Shown here piece by piece: positions 56,573 through 64,000 of a DNA stretch of 64,000 nucleotides (position 1 is its first letter; the number at the start of each line of letters is the position of its first letter). The stretch is taken from assembly GCA_022841325.1 (NCBI GenBank), contig JALHRS010000008.1, positions 6,890 through 70,889 on the forward strand. The letters run 5' to 3'. The position numbers and the translations under genes were made by a program. This stretch comes from Lysobacterales bacterium (lineage in GTDB: Bacteria > Pseudomonadota > Gammaproteobacteria > Xanthomonadales > SZUA-5). The notes beneath the pieces are model-generated. The model had not been told where the DNA came from, made no database searches, and saw only the letters and a program-made list of their open reading frames with translations.

Positions 56573-56612
56573 GGTTGTCGGTTGTCGGTTGTCGGTTGTC
56601 GGTTGTCGGTTG
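56573..56612. repeat. Heptamer tandem repeat (GGTTGTC)5
   Basis: Five perfect copies plus a partial copy. Confidence 0.9.
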
Positions 56613-57535: not shown

Positions 57536-57673
57536 CGGAGTCGGCCAAGCCTAATGGGAGCTTAACGATACTGCTGGATGAACGAGCTTGCCGCATTTGT
57601 AGTCGGTTTTGGTCAATGGAGTGCAGGCTAGACTGCGCCCCCCTGGAGACTTGGACCCCTGCACGGCGTGCCC

Positions 57674-59881
57674 ATGATTCGCCCGTTGATTGCGCTGATG
57701 CTGCTCGCCCTGAGCCTGGCAGCAGGTGCCGCCGATACCGCTCCCCGGTGCATAGGCCTGGTGCTCGGCGGTGGTGGCGCCCGTGGCGCCGCCCATATCG
57801 GCGTGCTCAAGGTGCTTGAGCGCGAGCGCATCCCGGTTTGCCGCATCGCCGGTACCAGCATGGGCTCCATCGTCGGTGGTTTGTATGCCTCGGGATACTC
57901 GCCGGGCGAAATCGAGGCGATTCTGAGCACGGTGAACTGGAAGGATGTGCTCAACGACGATCCGCCGCGCACCGATTTCCCGATGCGCCGCAAGAACGAC
58001 ACGCTGCGCTACCTGCTCGACTACCGTTTTGGCTTGCGCGACGGTGCCATCCAGCTGCCGCGCGGCGTGATCCAGGGACAGAAGCTGCTGCTGCTGCTGC
58101 GACGGCTGACCTTGCACACCTGGCGCACGCCGAACTTCGATGCGTTACCGATCCCGTTCCGCGCGGTGGCTACCGATATCGTCAGCGGCGAGCAGGTGCT
58201 GTTCAGGGAGGGTGATCTGGCGCTGGCGATACGCTCCAGCATGTCGGTGCCTGCGGCCTTTGCGCCGATTCGGGTGGACGGTCGGCTGTTGGTGGATGGC
58301 GGCATCGTCAACAACGTACCGGTCGATATCGCCCGTTCCATGGGCGCCGACCGCCTGATCGTGGTCGATGTGGGCGCGCCGCTGGCCAGCGACGACAGCC
58401 TCAATTCACCGTTCGCCATCACCATGCAGATGCTGGATGTGCTGATGAAACGGCGCACGGAGGAAGTGCTGGCGACCATGGCGCCCGAGGACATCAAGAT
58501 CCTGCCGCAGCTCGGCAACATGAGCAGTGCGGCCTTCGATGATGCGGCGATGGCGATTCCGCTGGGCGAGGCGGCGGCCGAAGCGCAACTGGCAAGGCTG
58601 CGCGAATGGTCGGTGTCCGAAGATCAATACCAGCAATACCAGTCAGCCCATCGCCGGGTCGAATTCGATCCGCCGCTGCTGAGTTTTCTCGACGTGGTCA
58701 AGGATCGCAGCAAGACCGCAGGCTATGTCGAACGCGCGCTCGACGGTTTTGTCGGTGAACCGCTGGACGTGGCAACCCTGGAACAGGCCATCGGCCGTGC
58801 CTACGGACTCAACAACTACGAGCGCATCACCTGGAATCCGGTTGTCCGTGGGGACGAGGTTGGCGTGGACGTGACCCCGGTAGACAAGGGCTGGGGACCG
58901 AATTTCATGACCTTCGGGCTGCAGATCAGCGACGATTTCCAGGGCGACAACGACTACCAGCTCGGCATCGAATACACGATGACTGGCCTCAATCGCTACG
59001 GTGGTGAATGGCGCTCGCGCGGCGAGATCGGGCGCATCACCGGGCTGCGCACCGAGTTCTTTCAGCCGGCCGGAAACAGCGGGCAGTACTTTGTCTTTCC
59101 CTACGTCGAATACCGCGCCTACGATCAGCCCCTGCGGGTGGGCAATGCGGTGCCGTCCGAGTTCCGGGTGCGGCGTGGCGCCATCGGTTTCGACGCCGGC
59201 TACGAGATCGACAACGCCACGCGGGTGTACGCCGGACTGGTTCGCGGCTACGACAACGCCACGGTCAGTGTCGGTGACGGCAGCATGATTCCGGGCTTGT
59301 CCACGGTCAGTAATCTGGGGCGGCTCGGCCTGGTCCGCGATACCCTCGATGATGCCAGTTTCCCCAGATCCGGCGGACGCGGCGAGTTGCTGTTGCTCGC
59401 GGATGTTCCGGGTCTGGGATCCGCTGGTGATGGCCAGATCATGGATGTCAGCTGGGATCACGCCATCAGTTCCGGTGCTAGCCGCTTCCTGCTCGGCGCA
59501 CGCCTGCACGCCAGCTGGGGACGCCCCAATGCCTTCAACGCCTTGTCGCCGCTGGGGGGGTTCACCAACCTGTCCGGATATGCCGAACGTGAGCTTCTGG
59601 GGGAGCAGAGCGCCCTGTTCCGCGGGATCTACTACCGTCGACTGGGTGACGAGGGCAGGTTGTTCTCGGTGCCGGCCTATGTCGGCGCCAGCCTGGAAGC
59701 CGGCAATGTCTATCGCGAACGCAGTCAGCTGGTCAGCCTGGACAACCTGATCCTTGCCGGCAGCGTGTTTGTCGGCATCGATTCGCCCTTCGGGCCGATC
59801 TTCCTCGGCTATGGCCGCGCCGACACCGGCGCCTCTTCGGTGTATCTCAACTTCGGCACCTTGTTGCGGCCGCGCTTGTAG
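57674..59881 (+). CDS. Patatin-like phospholipase with POTRA and beta-barrel (PlpD/type Vd-like)
   Basis: Signal peptide; GGGGARG, GTSMG, DGG motifs; C-terminal amphipathic beta-strands ending VYLNFG. Confidence 0.9.
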   Translation: MIRPLIALMLLALSLAAGAADTAPRCIGLVLGGGGARGAAHIGVLKVLERERIPVCRIAGTSMGSIVGGLYASGYSPGEIEAILSTVNWKDVLNDDPPRTDFPMRRKNDTLRYLLDYRFGLRDGAIQLPRGVIQGQKLLLLLRRLTLHTWRTPNFDALPIPFRAVATDIVSGEQVLFREGDLALAIRSSMSVPAAFAPIRVDGRLLVDGGIVNNVPVDIARSMGADRLIVVDVGAPLASDDSLNSPFAITMQMLDVLMKRRTEEVLATMAPEDIKILPQLGNMSSAAFDDAAMAIPLGEAAAEAQLARLREWSVSEDQYQQYQSAHRRVEFDPPLLSFLDVVKDRSKTAGYVERALDGFVGEPLDVATLEQAIGRAYGLNNYERITWNPVVRGDEVGVDVTPVDKGWGPNFMTFGLQISDDFQGDNDYQLGIEYTMTGLNRYGGEWRSRGEIGRITGLRTEFFQPAGNSGQYFVFPYVEYRAYDQPLRVGNAVPSEFRVRRGAIGFDAGYEIDNATRVYAGLVRGYDNATVSVGDGSMIPGLSTVSNLGRLGLVRDTLDDASFPRSGGRGELLLLADVPGLGSAGDGQIMDVSWDHAISSGASRFLLGARLHASWGRPNAFNALSPLGGFTNLSGYAERELLGEQSALFRGIYYRRLGDEGRLFSVPAYVGASLEAGNVYRERSQLVSLDNLILAGSVFVGIDSPFGPIFLGYGRADTGASSVYLNFGTLLRPRL

Positions 59882-59909
59882 CCGGTTGCGAGGGCAGGTT
59901 GGGCCACTT

Positions 59910-59933
59910 GTGGGAGCGGCCTGTGGCCGCGAT
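59910..59933. repeat. Single GTGG-type REP-like palindrome
   Basis: GTGGGAGCGGCC-TGT-GGCCGCGAT just after the patatin stop. Confidence 0.5.
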
Positions 59934-60146
59934 CGCTGCTGGCAGGGTGCGAAGGGACAGGCACTTGTCCGCAAACGACGCAGAGGAAAGCAAGTTTTCG
60001 ATCAGAGCATTGCGGCCGCTGACGCATTGCCAGGCCTCATCCTGGCGTCCTTGAGGGACCAGATGCTGATTGTTCGCGGGGCGGGCTACCTGACGCCTGC
60101 CGCCACCACGCAGGCCATGCCGCCGCGCCATCGGATTGTGTGAGAT

Positions 60147-60160
60147 TTGAGCCATGTCAA
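60147..60160 (+). promoter_or_regulatory. Possible FNR/DNR-family binding site upstream of the nqr-like operon
   Basis: TTGAG-CCAT-GTCAA, 8/10 match to TTGAT-N4-ATCAA. Confidence 0.4.
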
Positions 60161-60226
60161 CATCGTGATCAGCGATGGATGCTCATATGTCGAGGTGGAC
60201 ACTCGGGGATTCAGGGTGCGACCAAA

Positions 60227-61045
60227 TTGAAAAACCTGGCTGACACCCAGACAGCAGGAGTTGGCTGCGACTTGGCCGGCCGTGATGAGAAGATGACTGT
60301 GCTGGCGCTGCTGCCGCCGCTGATCGTGCGTCTTTACGGCGATGGCACGGAAGCCGCAATTCAGCGCACTTTGATGCTCTTGTTGGCGATAGCCATCGCA
60401 TATTTCTGGGCAGCTCTGTTTGCCCGCCCGCTAGCGCGTTCCACGGGCTGGGATCTGTTGGCCATTGCGATGATCTTCGTGGTCATGCTACCCGGGCCGG
60501 TGGCTTGGGGTGCCGCTGCCCTTGCCCTCAGTTTTGGTGCTGTTTTCGGGCGCGAGATTTTCGGTGGTCGGCCGATACTACCTCCGGCGCTGATAGGCCT
60601 TGCGTTCGCGATTTTCTCCTTTCCTGAGGGCGGGTTCGAGGCGCGCGGCATCCTCGCGCAATCACCCGATCTGCTGCTGGCGGCGTCGTGTCTGCCTGGC
60701 GCTGTGATCTTGATGGTCAGAGGCGCTCTGGTCTGGCAGGTCGCCGCCGGGGCCGTGGCAGGTCTGGCCGCAGTCGCGCTGACGATGGGCGTTCCCCAGT
60801 GGTGGTGGCAGCCGGGTCTGGGCGCTTTCGTTGCTGCGGTACTGTTTCTCGCTGCGGCGCCTGAAAGTGCAGCCGGTGGGGCAGGCGCCCGGTGGCTGCA
60901 CGGCTTGCTGGTGGGCGGACTGACCGCGCTTATCCGTGCCGCTGACCCCAACCAGCCAGACGGCGTGGTGTTTGCGGTCCTGCTGGGGGCGCTATTCGCC
61001 CCGCTGTTGGGCCGCGCCCTGCAATGGCGCATCCGCCATGACTAG
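60227..61045 (+). CDS. nqrB: Shortened NqrB/RnfD-family membrane subunit
   Basis: LALLPP, SFGAVFGREIFGG...PALIGLAF..FSFP, W.HG.LVG, IR..P..DGVVFAVLLG.LFAPL. About 250-270 aa; start uncertain (TTG 60227 or ATG 60293). Confidence 0.78.
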   Translation: MKNLADTQTAGVGCDLAGRDEKMTVLALLPPLIVRLYGDGTEAAIQRTLMLLLAIAIAYFWAALFARPLARSTGWDLLAIAMIFVVMLPGPVAWGAAALALSFGAVFGREIFGGRPILPPALIGLAFAIFSFPEGGFEARGILAQSPDLLLAASCLPGAVILMVRGALVWQVAAGAVAGLAAVALTMGVPQWWWQPGLGAFVAAVLFLAAAPESAAGGAGARWLHGLLVGGLTALIRAADPNQPDGVVFAVLLGALFAPLLGRALQWRIRHD

Positions 61046-61778
61046 GTCTAATCCACTCTGGTGGTGGAAGCGCTTCCTGGCCCTGCCAAACGAGCATCTG
61101 GGCAAGACGCTCGGCGTTGCTTTCCTGGTGGCTTTTTTTTGCTCTGTACTGGTTTCGGCGACAGCAGTCATGCTGAAGCCACTGCATGAAGCCAACCGAC
61201 TGGGGCACGGTGCGGCGCATATTCGAGCCATCGTGGAGGGTTTGGGCGAGAAGTCTCCATCCCTGCGCCTGGTTGATCTTGCAACGGGTGAATACGTCGA
61301 GTCCGACCCGAACACGAGCACTGAATTACCGCGCGACCGTGACATCGCCCGTTTGGGCAGCCGCGAGGACGTGGCGACAGTCTTCGAGTTGCGCGAAGGT
61401 GGCGAGCTCAGATTGGTGATCCTTCCGGTTCGCGGATCTGGCTACCAATCCACGCTCAAGGGCTATCTGGCACTCAAGGCCGACCTGAACACCGTTGCTG
61501 CGCTGACCTTCCATGAACATGACGAGACACCCGGCCTGGGCTCGCGTATCGACGAGGACGCCTGGAAAGCGCTTTGGCCGGGAAAACAGCTGAGCGATGC
61601 GTCTGGCACTATCCAGATAGCGGTGGTCAAGGGCGCCAGCGAGGGTGTCCATGAGGTGGATGGTATCTCGGGTGCGACCCGAACTGGCACCGGCATTACC
61701 CGACTGATGCGCTTCTGGCTCGGTCCCGACGGATACGGGCCTTATCTGGCGCGCTTGCGAGCAGAGGCCGGCCAATGA
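61038..61778 (+). CDS. nqrC: NqrC, FMN-binding periplasmic subunit
   Basis: [30 protein letters not shown], flavinylation motif [18 protein letters not shown]. Confidence 0.93.
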
Positions 61779-62425
61779 CCATCCGCAGCCGGACCCTGAT
61801 TGCCCCGATCCTGGTCAACAACCCGGTGACGCTCCAGGTGCTGGGAATCTGCTCGGCACTGGCCGTGACCACCAGCGTTGCCACCGCATTGGTCATGAGC
61901 GCCGCGCTGATCGTTGTACTTGCCATCTCCAGTTGCACGATCAGCTTGATTCGCAAGCACATCCCGCGTTCGATCCGGCTGATCGTGCAGATCACGATCA
62001 TTGCCTCGCTGGTCATTGTCGTGGATCAGTTGCTGCAGGCTTACCTGTTCTCGATCAGCAAGCGCTTGAGCGTGTTCGTCAGCCTGATCGTCACCAACTG
62101 CATCGTGCTCGGTCGTGCGGAGAGTTTCGCCATGCGCAACCCGCCGCTGCCCAGTCTCCTTGATGGCCTCGGAAACGGCCTTGGTTACGCGCTCATTCTG
62201 GTGGTCATCGCCACCGTGCGCGAGCTGCTCGGCGCGGGGACTCTGATGGGCGTGACCATCCTGCGGACCGAAGCGGACGGTGGCTGGTTCACCCCCCTGG
62301 GCCTGATGGCCTTGCCGGCGAGCGCCTTCTTCCTGCTCGGCCTGCTGGTCTGGGCGGTGCGAACGATCCGGCCGGAACAGGCGGAGCCGATCCAGCAACC
62401 GACGGACATTGAGGTTCGACAATGA
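61775..62425 (+). CDS. nqrD: NqrD
   Basis: [51 protein letters not shown]. Confidence 0.95.
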
Positions 62426-63024
62426 CCGAACTGCTGCTCCGTGCCATCTTCGCCGACAACCTGGCGCTCGCCTATTTCCTCGGCATGTGTACCTTCCTTG
62501 CCGTATCGCGCCGACTTGAAACCGCGTTCGGCCTGGGTCTGGCGATGATGGTGGTTCAGACCATCACCGTGCCCGTCAACAACCTCCTGTTTTCCGGACT
62601 GCTGAAACCCGGCGCGCTGGCATGGCTGGGCCTCGGTGACGTGGACTTGAGCTTCCTGATGCTGATCGCCTCGATTGGCGTCATTGCGGCCACGGTGCAG
62701 ATTCTCGAGATGGTGCTCGATCGCCACTTTGGGGCGTTGTACCGCGCGCTCGGTGTCTATCTGCCGTTGATCACGGTCAATTGCGCCATTCTTGGCGCCA
62801 GCCTGTTCATGGTCGAGCGGCTCTATGGGTTCACCGAGAGCGTTGTCTACGGCTTTGGTTCAGGCCTCGGCTGGGCGCTCGCCATTTGGGCACTCGCCGG
62901 CCTGCGTGAGCGCGTCGACGAGAGCCGCGTACCCAAGGGCCTGCGCGGGCTCGGCATCGCGTTCATCCTGACCGGCTTCATGTCGATGGGATTTTCCGTC
63001 TTTGGCGGGTTGAAATTCGGATGA
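62422..63024 (+). CDS. nqrE: NqrE
   Basis: [41 protein letters not shown]. Confidence 0.95.
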
Positions 63025-64000
63025 TGGAAATCGTCTTCGGCAGCGGCGTGTTCACCGGGCTGATCATGGTCCTGACGCTGGTCGTATTGGGCGCGCGGTT
63101 GCTGCTGATGCCCCGTGGCTTTGCGCGCGTCACCGTGAATCACGAAAAGGTCATTGACGCGAAGCTCGGCGATAAATTGCTGAGCGCACTGGATCATGGT
63201 GGCGTGCATTTGCCCACCAGTTGCGGTGGCGTTGGTACCTGTGGTTTGTGCCGCGTGACCGTTGCTGATAACGCCGATGTTTCGGCAGCGACGCGGGCGG
63301 TAGTGCACGCGACTGATCTCGACAACGGCATTCGCCTTGCCTGTCAGTTGCTGGTCCGCGGCGATATGGCGATTACCGTGGCGCCTGAATTGTTGGCGGT
63401 CGAAACCTGGGCCTGCACCGTCGTCCGGACCCAATCCGTCGCACCACTGATCAGGGAGATCGAACTCGCGTTGCCGGCAGGGCAGGCGCGGCATTTTCGG
63501 GCCGGTTCCTATGTGCAGATCACGGCGCCGCCGTTCCAACTGCCGTTCACCGAGATTTCCGTCGCCCCCGAGTTCGAGAAGTCCTGGATGCGTCTGGACC
63601 TGAGAAAGTTCGCGGCGCGTTCCGAGCTGGCTGTTGCACGAGCCTACTCCCTGGCCAACCGCCCCGAGCAAACCCATTCGCTGCTATTGAACATCCGCCT
63701 CGCGCTACCCCCTGCCAGCAAACCGGATGCCCCACCCGGTGTGGTGTCCTCCTACCTGTTCGGGCTCAAGGTGGGTGACGCGGTCACCGCGACTGGCCCC
63801 TTCGGCGATTTCTTCGTGATGGACAGCGACCGCGAAATCGTCTTCATCGGCGGTGGTGTCGGCATGGCGCCGCTGCGCGCTCATGTGTTCGATCAACTCG
63901 AGCACCGCAGGTCTACCCGCAAGATCAGCTTCTGGTATGGCGCGCGTGCGCGCATCGATCTCTATTACTTCGATGATATGCAGCGACTCGAACAGGATCA
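63021..64000 (+). CDS. nqrF: NqrF NADH-oxidising subunit (truncated by the window end)
   Basis: Not in the ORF track. Manual translation: N-terminal [12 protein letters not shown]...RLACQ 2Fe-2S motif, [46 protein letters not shown]. Confidence 0.95.

Follow-up and report, generated by a model that had tools for sequence, protein, structure and literature searches.

The operon at the end of the 64,000-nucleotide stretch of DNA analysed here (the window) codes for a respiratory complex of five subunits that derives from Na+-NQR. NQR is usually regarded as a pump that always has six subunits, one of which, NqrB, holds two flavins as well as the quinone site and the ion path. In the window operon, the return half of this machinery is gone: NqrA was not found, and NqrB is without the FMN loop, the riboflavin side chains, the quinone-pocket glycines and the N-terminal helices. 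Judged from conserved ligands, the input half is whole, with NADH, FAD and 2Fe-2S sites on NqrF, the intramembrane 2Fe-2S site of NqrD/E and the covalent FMN site of NqrC. The complex probably carries NADH electrons to the periplasmic side, without a known route back to quinone. We hold the anatomy and the evolutionary placement of the operon with high confidence; for its function, our best reading is that electrons are exported one way and stop at NqrC-FMN, and we give this an even chance.

The operon consists of eight genes in a conserved order, nqrB'-nqrC-nqrD-nqrE-nqrF-apbE-nqrM(short)-cbs, the first five of which lie in the window, and successive genes from nqrB' to nqrF overlap by 4-8 bp. 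The features are as follows:

57668-59881, patatin-like gene (ORF list)
59882..60271, no strand, gap between the patatin-like gene and nqrB' (ORF list), 390-411 bp depending on the nqrB' start
60272 (TTG) or 60293 (ATG) to 61045, + strand, nqrB', 257 or 250 aa, PF03116
61038-61778, + strand, nqrC, TIGR01938, membrane-anchored periplasmic FMN subunit
61775-62425, + strand, nqrD, NF006777 score 303.9 against a cut-off of 235
62422-63024, + strand, nqrE, TIGR01940 score 283.2 against a cut-off of 247.55
63021..64000, + strand, nqrF, first 326 of 405 codons, TIGR01941 score 329 against 295 on the partial protein, stop 238 bp past the window
L003 5082-6101, beyond the window, after nqrF, apbE, PF02424 at 211 bits
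L003 6098-6253, beyond the window, short nqrM, 51 codons, assigned by profile comparison
L003 6250-6669, beyond the window, CBS-pair gene at the operon end

As the preliminary description had stated, the operon opens with an NqrB-like gene shortly after the patatin gene and no nqrA lies between them: tblastn with two NqrA queries over the 2.3 kb upstream of nqrB' revealed neither nqrA nor a remnant of it in the gap. Rfam matches (up to E = 1) and sigma-70-like promoters were not found in 59700-60450. Reading on past nqrF, a check proposed in that description, yielded apbE, the short nqrM and the CBS-pair gene; genes for maturation of FMN (apbE) and of the D/E cluster (nqrM) are both in the operon.

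NqrF, NqrD/E and NqrC had been described as looking intact, and all cofactor ligands are indeed retained in the window copy and across type III, as we call this operon and its relatives. NqrD, NqrE and NqrF all score above their equivalog cut-offs, and NqrC reaches 147.8 with TIGR01938 (cut-off 144). The NqrC flavinylation site DGISGAT is present with the equivalent of T225, and the xGAT motif occurs in 27 of 27 aligned type III NqrC sequences. Equivalents of Cys29 and Cys112 are retained in NqrD (compared with 7xk3_D; 27/27 type III copies), as are those of Cys26 and Cys120 in NqrE (compared with 7xk3_E; 26/26 copies). The complete NqrF matches 8a1t_F with 411 bits and keeps the 2Fe-2S ligands Cys70/76/79/111, the FAD motif RxYS and the NADH motif GGGxGxAP, the ligands being present in all 23 type III sequences compared. 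Canonical NqrM has four Cys; the 51-codon nqrM encodes three conserved ones. Its identity was settled by profile comparison with PF04400-positive NqrM (hhalign probability 97.3%, E 1.8e-11), whereas simpler searches did not match: the 51-aa peptide of the window has no Pfam or NCBIfam match and its BLASTP similarity to true NqrM is not significant (E 0.21). A weak PF04400 match exists in 12 of 17 short NqrM members, the window copy not among them.

With 257 aa from TTG or 250 aa from ATG, NqrB' is as short as previously noted (about 250-270 aa). It matches PF03116 with 99 bits and the NCBIfam nqrB equivalog with 83 bits (cut-off 414). Its AF2 model (pLDDT 85.3) superimposes 255 residues onto chain residues 52-406 of Vibrio cholerae NqrB with a Z score of 29.4 and an rmsd of 2.3 Å (VIA-align). 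By alignment and model, NqrB' is predicted to retain the entire ten-helix, transporter-like membrane core of V. cholerae NqrB. The N-terminal tail, which touches NqrA in the solved complex, is absent, because the model aligns only from chain residue 52 onward, and the insertion between helices one and two is also lost. The SGAT FMN loop with T236, earlier reported missing, is deleted: in the HMMER alignment residues 218-280 of the V. cholerae chain, T236 included, oppose only ~20 NqrB' residues, and the landmarks P217 and SWR are separated by 37 residues compared to 74-84 in canonical copies. The loop is replaced by the short conserved FSFPEGGFEA, and a conserved flavinylation motif was not found among 120 NqrB' members, five of which contain [STA]GA[ST] by chance. 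The invariant polar residues of NqrB' are E95, E123, C140, R222 and D230, with E123 inside the replacement loop.

Residue mapping in NqrB' combines sequence alignment with the predicted, cofactor-free model. A by-eye alignment had suggested that E144, D346 and D397 are lost, and HMMER reproduced it exactly: FWEVLF of V. cholerae NqrB becomes FWAALF (E144A), FMATDP becomes FLAAAP (D346A) and FAPLFD becomes FAPLLG (D397G). Among the 120 members examined, Ala takes the place of E144 in 94 of 110 scorable sequences and no Asp occupies the D346 position, but the change of D397 to Gly is restricted to the window copy and its nearest relatives, this residue staying Asp in 91 of 113 scorable members. 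Other changes relative to V. cholerae are G140A/G141Y, T162I, N200P, N203P and a two-residue deletion that takes out G198. According to PMC10643135, riboflavin in NqrB is hydrogen-bonded by the side chains of T162, N200, N203 and D346 and by the backbone amide of G198, and an N203A/D346A double mutant is reported in PMC9293633 to be devoid of riboflavin. The four side chains are I, P, P and A in the window copy and are replaced family-wide. G141 also lines the quinone site, which the N-terminal helices complete, as described in PMC10643135; in NqrB' G140/G141 are gone, the G141 equivalent being Tyr in 85 of 110 scorable members (120 examined), and the N-terminal amphipathic helices are absent. 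NqrB' has lost more than the earlier claim of a canonical path that cannot be completed had listed: the ligands of riboflavin, the glycines of the quinone pocket and the N-terminal helices are missing as well.

Within a CBS-carrying NQR clade, type III is the last step of a reduction: the sites for riboflavin and quinone are lost, and no NqrA was found. In an NqrD+E+F tree of 66 taxa (FastTree, Rnf outgroup), type III has a support of 1.0, types II and III together 0.962 and types I, II and III together 0.991; a tree of NqrD+E only gives another deep order, placing canonical NQR between II+III and I with a support of 0.567. The sister groups, types I and II, are represented by metagenome loci L069-L148 and have the CBS gene at the operon end in common with type III (type II 21/21, type I 9/9 of the loci extending far enough), as well as the lost NqrB FMN threonine. 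In type I the loop, the GG pair and E144 are retained, whereas in type II the loop is deleted, T162 is kept in most copies and N203 in many, otherwise being His or Ser. Types I and II differ from type III in retaining the D346 equivalent and NqrA: among loci with at least 1300 bp upstream, NqrA was detected in 42/42 of type II and 16/16 of type I but in 0/26 of type III. In the literature searched, we found no published description of types I and II, nor of type III, that is, an NqrA-less nqrBCDEF with truncated NqrB and a CBS gene together with nqr.

In the reading that we prefer, electrons of cytoplasmic NADH would cross the membrane one way from NqrF via NqrD/E to NqrC-FMN and from there reach an acceptor on the periplasmic side that is encoded outside the cluster, with NqrB' kept as a selected structural partner of NqrC and NqrD/E. 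To look for conserved neighbours that could provide the acceptor, up to five flanking ORFs per side of 30 clusters and of the window's own were compared all against all by BLASTP; no family was common to more than three loci, the ORFs being crude longest-ORF picks. One-way export dissipates membrane potential and therefore needs a pay-off, none of which is visible in the locus. The genome of the window contains a second cluster with FMN_bind and ApbE genes on contig C48. This cluster was rejected as a general partner since NqrC is the sole FMN_bind protein in two of five other genomes carrying the operon.

It is extremely improbable that the canonical complex is rebuilt with an NqrA or a complete NqrB encoded at another locus. 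The 6.1 Mb assembly is split into 365 contigs and such a gene could sit in an unassembled part, but at a completeness of 100% (contamination 6%) a TIGR01936 search detected no NqrA, nor did it in the five other genomes with the operon, which include one complete chromosome. Noted earlier as missing from the operon, nqrA was thus not found in the rest of the genome either. Moreover, a single PF03116 locus is present in the genome and in four of the five others, and the N-terminal tail of NqrB is gone. Hardly more credible is a decaying nqr remnant in which nqrB' is a dying pseudogene. It would agree with the very low equivalog score (83 against 414), with the type III locus L040, where nqrB' is interrupted and the CBS gene missing, and with our failure to find an nqrB'-type cluster in eight genomes of the same genus. 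Against it, the open frames are nearly constant (median length 261 aa in 120 examined of 158 homologs), 36 columns are invariant among 30 sequences with identities down to 51%, and the gene order with its overlaps is conserved at 27 further loci in GTDB species genomes labelled as several phyla. The median dN/dS of NqrB' (0.23) is close to those of NqrC and NqrF (both 0.20). The possibility of a decaying pseudogene, raised at the outset, is thus set aside; NqrB' is a conserved protein under selection.

Selection on NqrB' like that on the catalytic subunits also bears on two readings that give it a task of its own. The complex could still be an NADH:quinone oxidoreductase with a new site, where NqrC-FMN reduces quinone on the periplasmic side of the membrane, perhaps in the FSFPEGGFEA loop or at NqrD/E, without FMN-B and riboflavin. 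The full membrane core and the invariant Glu E123 in the replacement loop speak for such a site, and the lack of a linked acceptor gene agrees with an acceptor that is universal, like the quinone pool. However, the canonical pocket is filled by the Tyr at the G141 position, NqrA and the N-terminal helices of NqrB are absent, and complex I (NuoH) is encoded in the genome, so the NQR-derived complex is not required as the main NADH:quinone reductase. We know of no NQR or RNF that reduces quinone at the periplasmic face and consider this alternative rather unlikely, though one to be taken seriously. Alternatively, NqrB' might still move ions, as a channel or translocator for which redox-driven swinging of NqrC and a switch in NqrD/E serve as the gate, with the electrons dumped on an unspecific acceptor, e.g. 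oxygen. NqrB has a fold resembling Amt and urea transporters, and its Na+-path residues are listed in PMC10643135. The entire Amt/urea-transporter-like core is present in NqrB' and the equivalents of F342 and, in most members, D397 are conserved together with E95, but Na+-path residues are lost (E157 equivalent variable, F338 replaced by A, D52 region absent) and the proposed trigger, reduced FMN-B, is impossible here, which makes a channel improbable. Still, constraint as on catalytic subunits, invariant polar residues and a channel-like core could mean that NqrB' has an active role, as ion path or new quinone site, and is not a scaffold.

Returning to one-way export, the last gene of the operon offers a possible means of control. 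The CBS-pair protein is predicted to dock onto NqrF, with its conserved linker loop reaching into the cleft for NADH. The ipSAE of this docking is 0.68 compared to 0.00 for the best of three controls; among solved complexes 58 of 80 attained that mark, among mismatched pairs 2 of 110, and the contact expresses model confidence from custom-built alignments. In the runs the pLDDT of the partner was at least 82 and contacts agreed to at least 97%. If the predicted docking is correct, NADH entry would be open to control by a nucleotide-sensing protein. Tentatively, and as possible rather than probable, we propose an undescribed, widespread clade that sheds the NqrB flavins stepwise and ends in a five-subunit, NqrA-less, one-way exporter of NADH electrons via NqrC-FMN, gated by a CBS nucleotide sensor plugging the NADH cleft of NqrF.

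As a conserved family retains the input half alone, the halves of NQR are separable by evolution, and two intermediate forms are living. The family is a natural dissection that bears on how NqrD/E and NqrC work without FMN-B, on the purpose of NqrA and on the contribution of a cofactor-free NqrB core. In uncultured environmental bacteria it is a further candidate for supplying the cell envelope with reducing power from the cytoplasm, and with the predicted CBS lid over the NADH site there is a testable idea of how the complex could be switched. Regulated export via NqrC-FMN with a CBS gate would, if true, represent a new kind of transmembrane electron conduit made from parts of a respiratory pump.

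The operon shares with canonical Na+-NQR clear orthologs of NqrC, D, E and F with all cofactor ligands, the same membrane fold of NqrB' and the position of apbE and nqrM after the structural genes. It differs in that NqrA was not found, in an NqrB' without FMN site, riboflavin side chains, quinone-pocket glycines and tail, in the shortened nqrM of 51 codons and in closing with a CBS-pair gene. With RNF (RnfABCDGE) the membrane core is common, RnfD/A/E/G corresponding to NqrB/E/D/C, but the cluster has neither RnfB nor RnfC, its input module is NqrF, and Rnf forms the outgroup of the tree. RnfC is related to NqrA, for which the TIGR01936 search of the genome was blank, and the only PF03116 locus is that of NqrB'. 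RnfD also has bulky residues at the positions of the NQR quinone-pocket glycines (Reyes-Prieto 2014, PMC4014512), but is described in PMC12174285 as retaining covalent FMN and riboflavin, whereas NqrB' has neither site. The preliminary description had pointed to partial Nqr/Rnf-like clusters in flavinylation surveys. Partial NQR/RNF systems are indeed reported there, in which electrons are proposed to flow one way from NAD(P)H in the cytosol to an FMN domain outside it (Meheust 2021, PMC8238504), but their architecture is another one: the NqrB/RnfD membrane domain carries a fused NAD-binding domain, and the systems occur mostly in Actinobacteria and CPR. That survey takes as 'NQR' any NqrF gene with an FMN-binding or ApbE gene next to it, and by this rule the window cluster would count as ordinary NQR. 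Unlike the fused systems, it has a path from NqrF via NqrD/E to NqrC, PF00175 resides in NqrF, and NqrB', a protein of its own with 257 aa, contains only PF03116 and is without cofactor sites.

The operon opens with a gene for a short NqrB-like protein, here termed NqrB' (257 amino acids from a TTG start at 60272 or 250 from an ATG at 60293). A gap of 390-411 bp separates this gene from a patatin-like gene upstream, and the operon extends past the end of the window into the rest of its contig (L003).

Genes of the operon and its upstream neighbour
57668-59881: patatin-like gene, upstream of nqrB' (ORF list)
60272/60293-61045, + strand: nqrB' (ORF list; PF03116, 99 bits)
61038-61778, + strand: nqrC (Pfam/NCBIfam, at or above the cut-off of at least one equivalog model)
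61775-62425, + strand: nqrD (Pfam/NCBIfam, at or above the cut-off of at least one equivalog model)
62422-63024, + strand: nqrE (Pfam/NCBIfam, at or above the cut-off of at least one equivalog model)
63021 to past the window end, + strand: nqrF (at or above the cut-off of at least one equivalog model; 405 codons in the contig)
L003, after nqrF, outside the window: apbE (PF02424, 211 bits)
L003, after apbE: putative shortened nqrM (51-codon ORF)
L003:6250-6669, about 2.3 kb past the window end: cbs, a CBS-pair gene (PF00571; 139 codons) that closes the operon

From nqrB' to nqrF the gene ends overlap by 4-8 bp, and the genes after nqrF in L003 overlap likewise, by 4 bp each. The preliminary description had pointed to the genes after nqrF for further reading; in the contig these are apbE, a 51-codon nqrM-like ORF and the CBS-pair gene. 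The patatin-like gene encodes 737 amino acids with an N-terminal patatin domain (residues 31-222), beyond which some 500 residues match no Pfam family; judged by eye, its first ~20 residues resemble a signal peptide. Between two convergent genes, at 56573-56612, the heptamer GGTTGTC is repeated perfectly 5.7 times.

The half of the complex that takes up electrons is intact, as the preliminary description had proposed for NqrF, NqrD/E and NqrC. Compared with the V. cholerae chains, the window's proteins keep T225 of NqrC within DGISGAT, C29 and C112 of NqrD, C26 and C120 of NqrE, and C70, C76, C79 and C111 of NqrF together with its FAD motif RxYS and NADH motif GGGxGxAP. These ligand motifs are also kept across the NqrA-less family to which the operon belongs (type III): in 27 of 27 NqrC proteins by alignment, 27 of 27 NqrD, 26 of 26 NqrE and 23 of 23 NqrF. 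Profile comparison identifies the 51-codon ORF as a shortened NqrM: a profile built from 17 short peptides of this kind matched a PF04400-positive NqrM of a related genome with 97.3% probability (E 1.8e-11); PF04400 itself weakly matched 12 of the 17 peptides and gave no match to the window copy.

NqrB' scores 83 bits with the NCBIfam nqrB equivalog model, whose cut-off is 414. By eye, it had been described as lacking the FMN loop and three acidic residues of NqrB. A HMMER search of solved structures, in which NqrB' and V. cholerae NqrB align over two separate blocks, yielded identical replacements (E144 by A, D346 by A, D397 by G) and set chain residues 218-280, including the FMN threonine T236, opposite about 20 residues of NqrB'. 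Beyond these, the alignment revealed substitution of G140 by A and of G141 by Y, the riboflavin positions T162, N200 and N203 replaced by I, P and P, and a two-residue deletion that removes G198. According to passages of PMC10643135, T162, N200, N203 and D346 of NQR bind riboflavin through their side chains and G198 through its backbone amide, and the quinone rests against G141 in a site completed by N-terminal amphipathic helices; passages of PMC9293633 report from mutagenesis that the N203A/D346A enzyme is without riboflavin. Given these ligand roles, all four riboflavin-binding side chains are replaced by non-polar residues in NqrB', and the quinone pocket is filled. Passages of PMC10643135 also name D52, E157 and the gate F338/F342 in the Na+ path; the HMMER alignment of NqrB' has no counterpart of the D52 region, shows variation at the E157 position and a replacement of F338 by A, and keeps F342. 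An AlphaFold2 model of NqrB', based on the alignment of 30 family members (pLDDT 85.3), could be superposed on the V. cholerae protein over 255 residues at an rmsd of 2.3 Å (Z 29.4; Foldseek TM 0.80-0.84), its residues 1-256 corresponding to chain residues 52-406. Since the superposition spans this range, NqrB' is the complete NqrB membrane core. In the alignment view, it is missing the N-terminal ~51 residues as well as two insertions that together amount to ~100 residues: the stretch separating helices one and two, and the FMN loop.

The reading of nqrB' as a decaying gene is countered by its conserved family, invariant columns, gene order and dN/dS. A large protein collection contains 158 homologs at E <= 0.001. 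Among the 120 listed, the median length is 261 amino acids and identity to the window's protein ranges over 52-88%; 36 columns are invariant across 30 aligned members. When one genome was scanned for each species, close relatives turned up at 27 loci (L014-L040), all in MAGs, labelled by their record titles as Alphaproteobacteria (Rhodospirillales, Kiloniellales, Thalassospiraceae, Hyphomicrobiales), Burkholderiales, Gammaproteobacteria, Acidobacteria, Gemmatimonadota and one 'Flavobacteriales'. In all 27, nqrB' is followed by nqrC and nqrD, and the order continues as E-F-(apbE)-nqrM-cbs as far as the contigs reach. Among the 21 type III loci with at least 1700 bp after nqrF, the window's own included, a CBS gene is present at 20, an nqrM-like ORF at 19 and apbE at 13. 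The sole CBS exception, L040, has no match to apbE, nqrM or CBS within 3 kb after nqrF, and its nqrB' (L040:5951-6655) is interrupted, which may reflect decay or an assembly error. Median dN/dS values are 0.23 for NqrB', 0.20 for NqrC and NqrF, 0.145 for NqrD, 0.105 for NqrE and 0.16 for CBS; these pairwise Nei-Gojobori values within the family are rough, as synonymous sites are partly saturated. At one locus, L030, the intact operon is preceded at a distance of ~2.4 kb by a partial second short nqrB (L030:7142-7592; query residues 4-156, 68-70% identity, two frames).

NqrA was found neither at the loci nor in the genomes searched. Upstream of nqrB', tblastn found it at none of the 26 type III loci with at least 1300 bp of upstream sequence. 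The genome search for nqrA that the preliminary description had suggested gave no TIGR01936 match in the window's own assembly (100% completeness, 6% contamination, 365 contigs) or in the genomes of five other carriers, which include a complete chromosome of 3.9 Mb. PF03116 occurs at a single locus in the window's own genome and in four of the five other carriers. No RNF or canonical NQR stands by in these genomes. The window's genome encodes complex I (NuoH). Its three NuoH matches, on contigs C53, C169 and C172, one of which runs off its contig, represent either two complex I operons or, given the estimated 6% contamination, foreign contigs. The same genome carries a second flavinylation-type cluster on contig C48 (L158:2802-7203), consisting of three ORFs that match no Pfam family (142, 135 and 501 amino acids), a 188-residue FMN_bind protein and ApbE, as well as a third ApbE on contig C15.

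The window cluster was probably acquired horizontally, since no NqrB' match was found in eight genomes of the same genus. The nearest relatives among named loci, in MAGs titled Proteobacteria, Alphaproteobacteria, Kiloniellales and Burkholderiales, point the same way. A family-level search of 24 other genomes gave two matches to NqrB' (33-34% identity, open frames of 189-424 amino acids), one of which (G019) is a canonical nqrABCDEF cluster. Given the 6% contamination, the cluster may instead stem from a mis-binned contig.

Searching 1.84 billion representatives with a profile returned 2355 matches and, besides the window's family, many other NqrB-like proteins of 260-285 amino acids with one matching stretch, compared with two in canonical NqrB (350-400 amino acids). 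These other short proteins have no FMN loop, keep the D346 and D397 equivalents and, in many cases, that of N203, and often carry E or Q at the E144 position. The neighbourhoods of short NqrB homologs, which the preliminary description had proposed to survey, revealed two groups that both keep NqrA: a metagenome scan with ten of these proteins as queries gave 80 loci (L069-L148), divided by tblastn with the window operon's proteins and two NqrA proteins from canonical loci. Type II (61 loci; NqrA in 42 of 42 with enough upstream sequence) has a short NqrB with a 30-residue remnant loop and no S-G-A-T; D346 and D397 are kept, E144 is replaced by Q and T162 kept in most, and N203 is kept in many and His or Ser in others. 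Type I (19 loci; NqrA in 16 of 16) has a full-length loop in which S-G-A-T has become G-G-S-E/D/N, the threonine being replaced; GG, E144 and D346 are kept, N200 is replaced by T and N203 by S in most, and the N-terminal tail is absent. In both types, NqrA contains all three of its Pfam domains and lacks Fe-S domains. A CBS gene stands at the cluster end in 21 of 21 type II and 9 of 9 type I loci with enough downstream sequence; one canonical nqrABCDEF locus (L041) also has one. In a FastTree phylogeny of NqrD+E+F (66 taxa, Rnf outgroup), type III formed a clade (1.0) on a long stem (0.30), with support of 0.962 for II+III and 0.991 for I+II+III. Type II alone was weakly supported (0.42), so that type III may be nested inside it. 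A tree of D+E only agreed on III and on II+III (0.873) and differed in the deep order. The simplest history would begin with loss of the NqrB flavinylation site, followed by deletion of the loop and, as a third step, the joint disappearance of NqrA and the riboflavin and quinone sites.

Because a CBS gene closes the operon throughout the clade, the CBS protein was chosen for complex prediction with NqrF residues 36-405 (45-row alignment per chain). The median ipSAE was 0.68 (0.70, 0.64, 0.68) and the best of three controls gave 0.00, partner pLDDT was at least 82, and contacts agreed by at least 97% between runs; of solved complexes, 58 of 80 attained that ipSAE mark, as did 2 of 110 mismatched pairs, counts that apply only roughly here as self-made alignments were used. 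The model supports a predicted binding of the CBS protein to NqrF. We know of no solved complex of a CBS pair with an FNR domain, and a pass from model memory therefore seems unlikely. The predicted interface comprises the conserved linker loop 59-71 of the CBS protein, including the invariant Y64 and near-invariant G69 and G70, and NqrF residues 278-280 (GGG of the NADH motif), 307-309, 337-338 and 376-380 (GPPLM), which make up the NAD(H) cleft. As CBS pairs are nucleotide-binding modules and docking is predicted at this cleft, we propose that the CBS protein acts as a nucleotide-responsive lid on NADH entry.

The sequences establish which parts are present, that the input half has its ligands and the return half has lost its sites, and that all genes are under selection. 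NADH would reduce FAD, and electrons would pass via two 2Fe-2S centres to the NqrC-FMN at the periplasmic face, where they would halt because the next canonical carriers are missing. From there, an electron would leave to something at the periplasmic face. Flanking genes were not found to be shared between type III loci; as no acceptor gene is linked, the acceptor would be either general, such as quinone bound at some new site, cytochrome c, chelated metals or oxygen, or a protein encoded elsewhere. Since NqrB' is constrained like NqrC, it should have some role, the most economical being that of a docking and structural partner of NqrC and NqrD/E; it may also serve as a residual channel or harbour a new site for quinone.

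In the literature searched, we found no description of an NQR that lacks NqrA, of a short NqrB or of nqr operons with a CBS gene, nor of types I and II. What comes closest in print is the 'NQR/RNF-like' class of Meheust 2021, which is defined by a different architecture.
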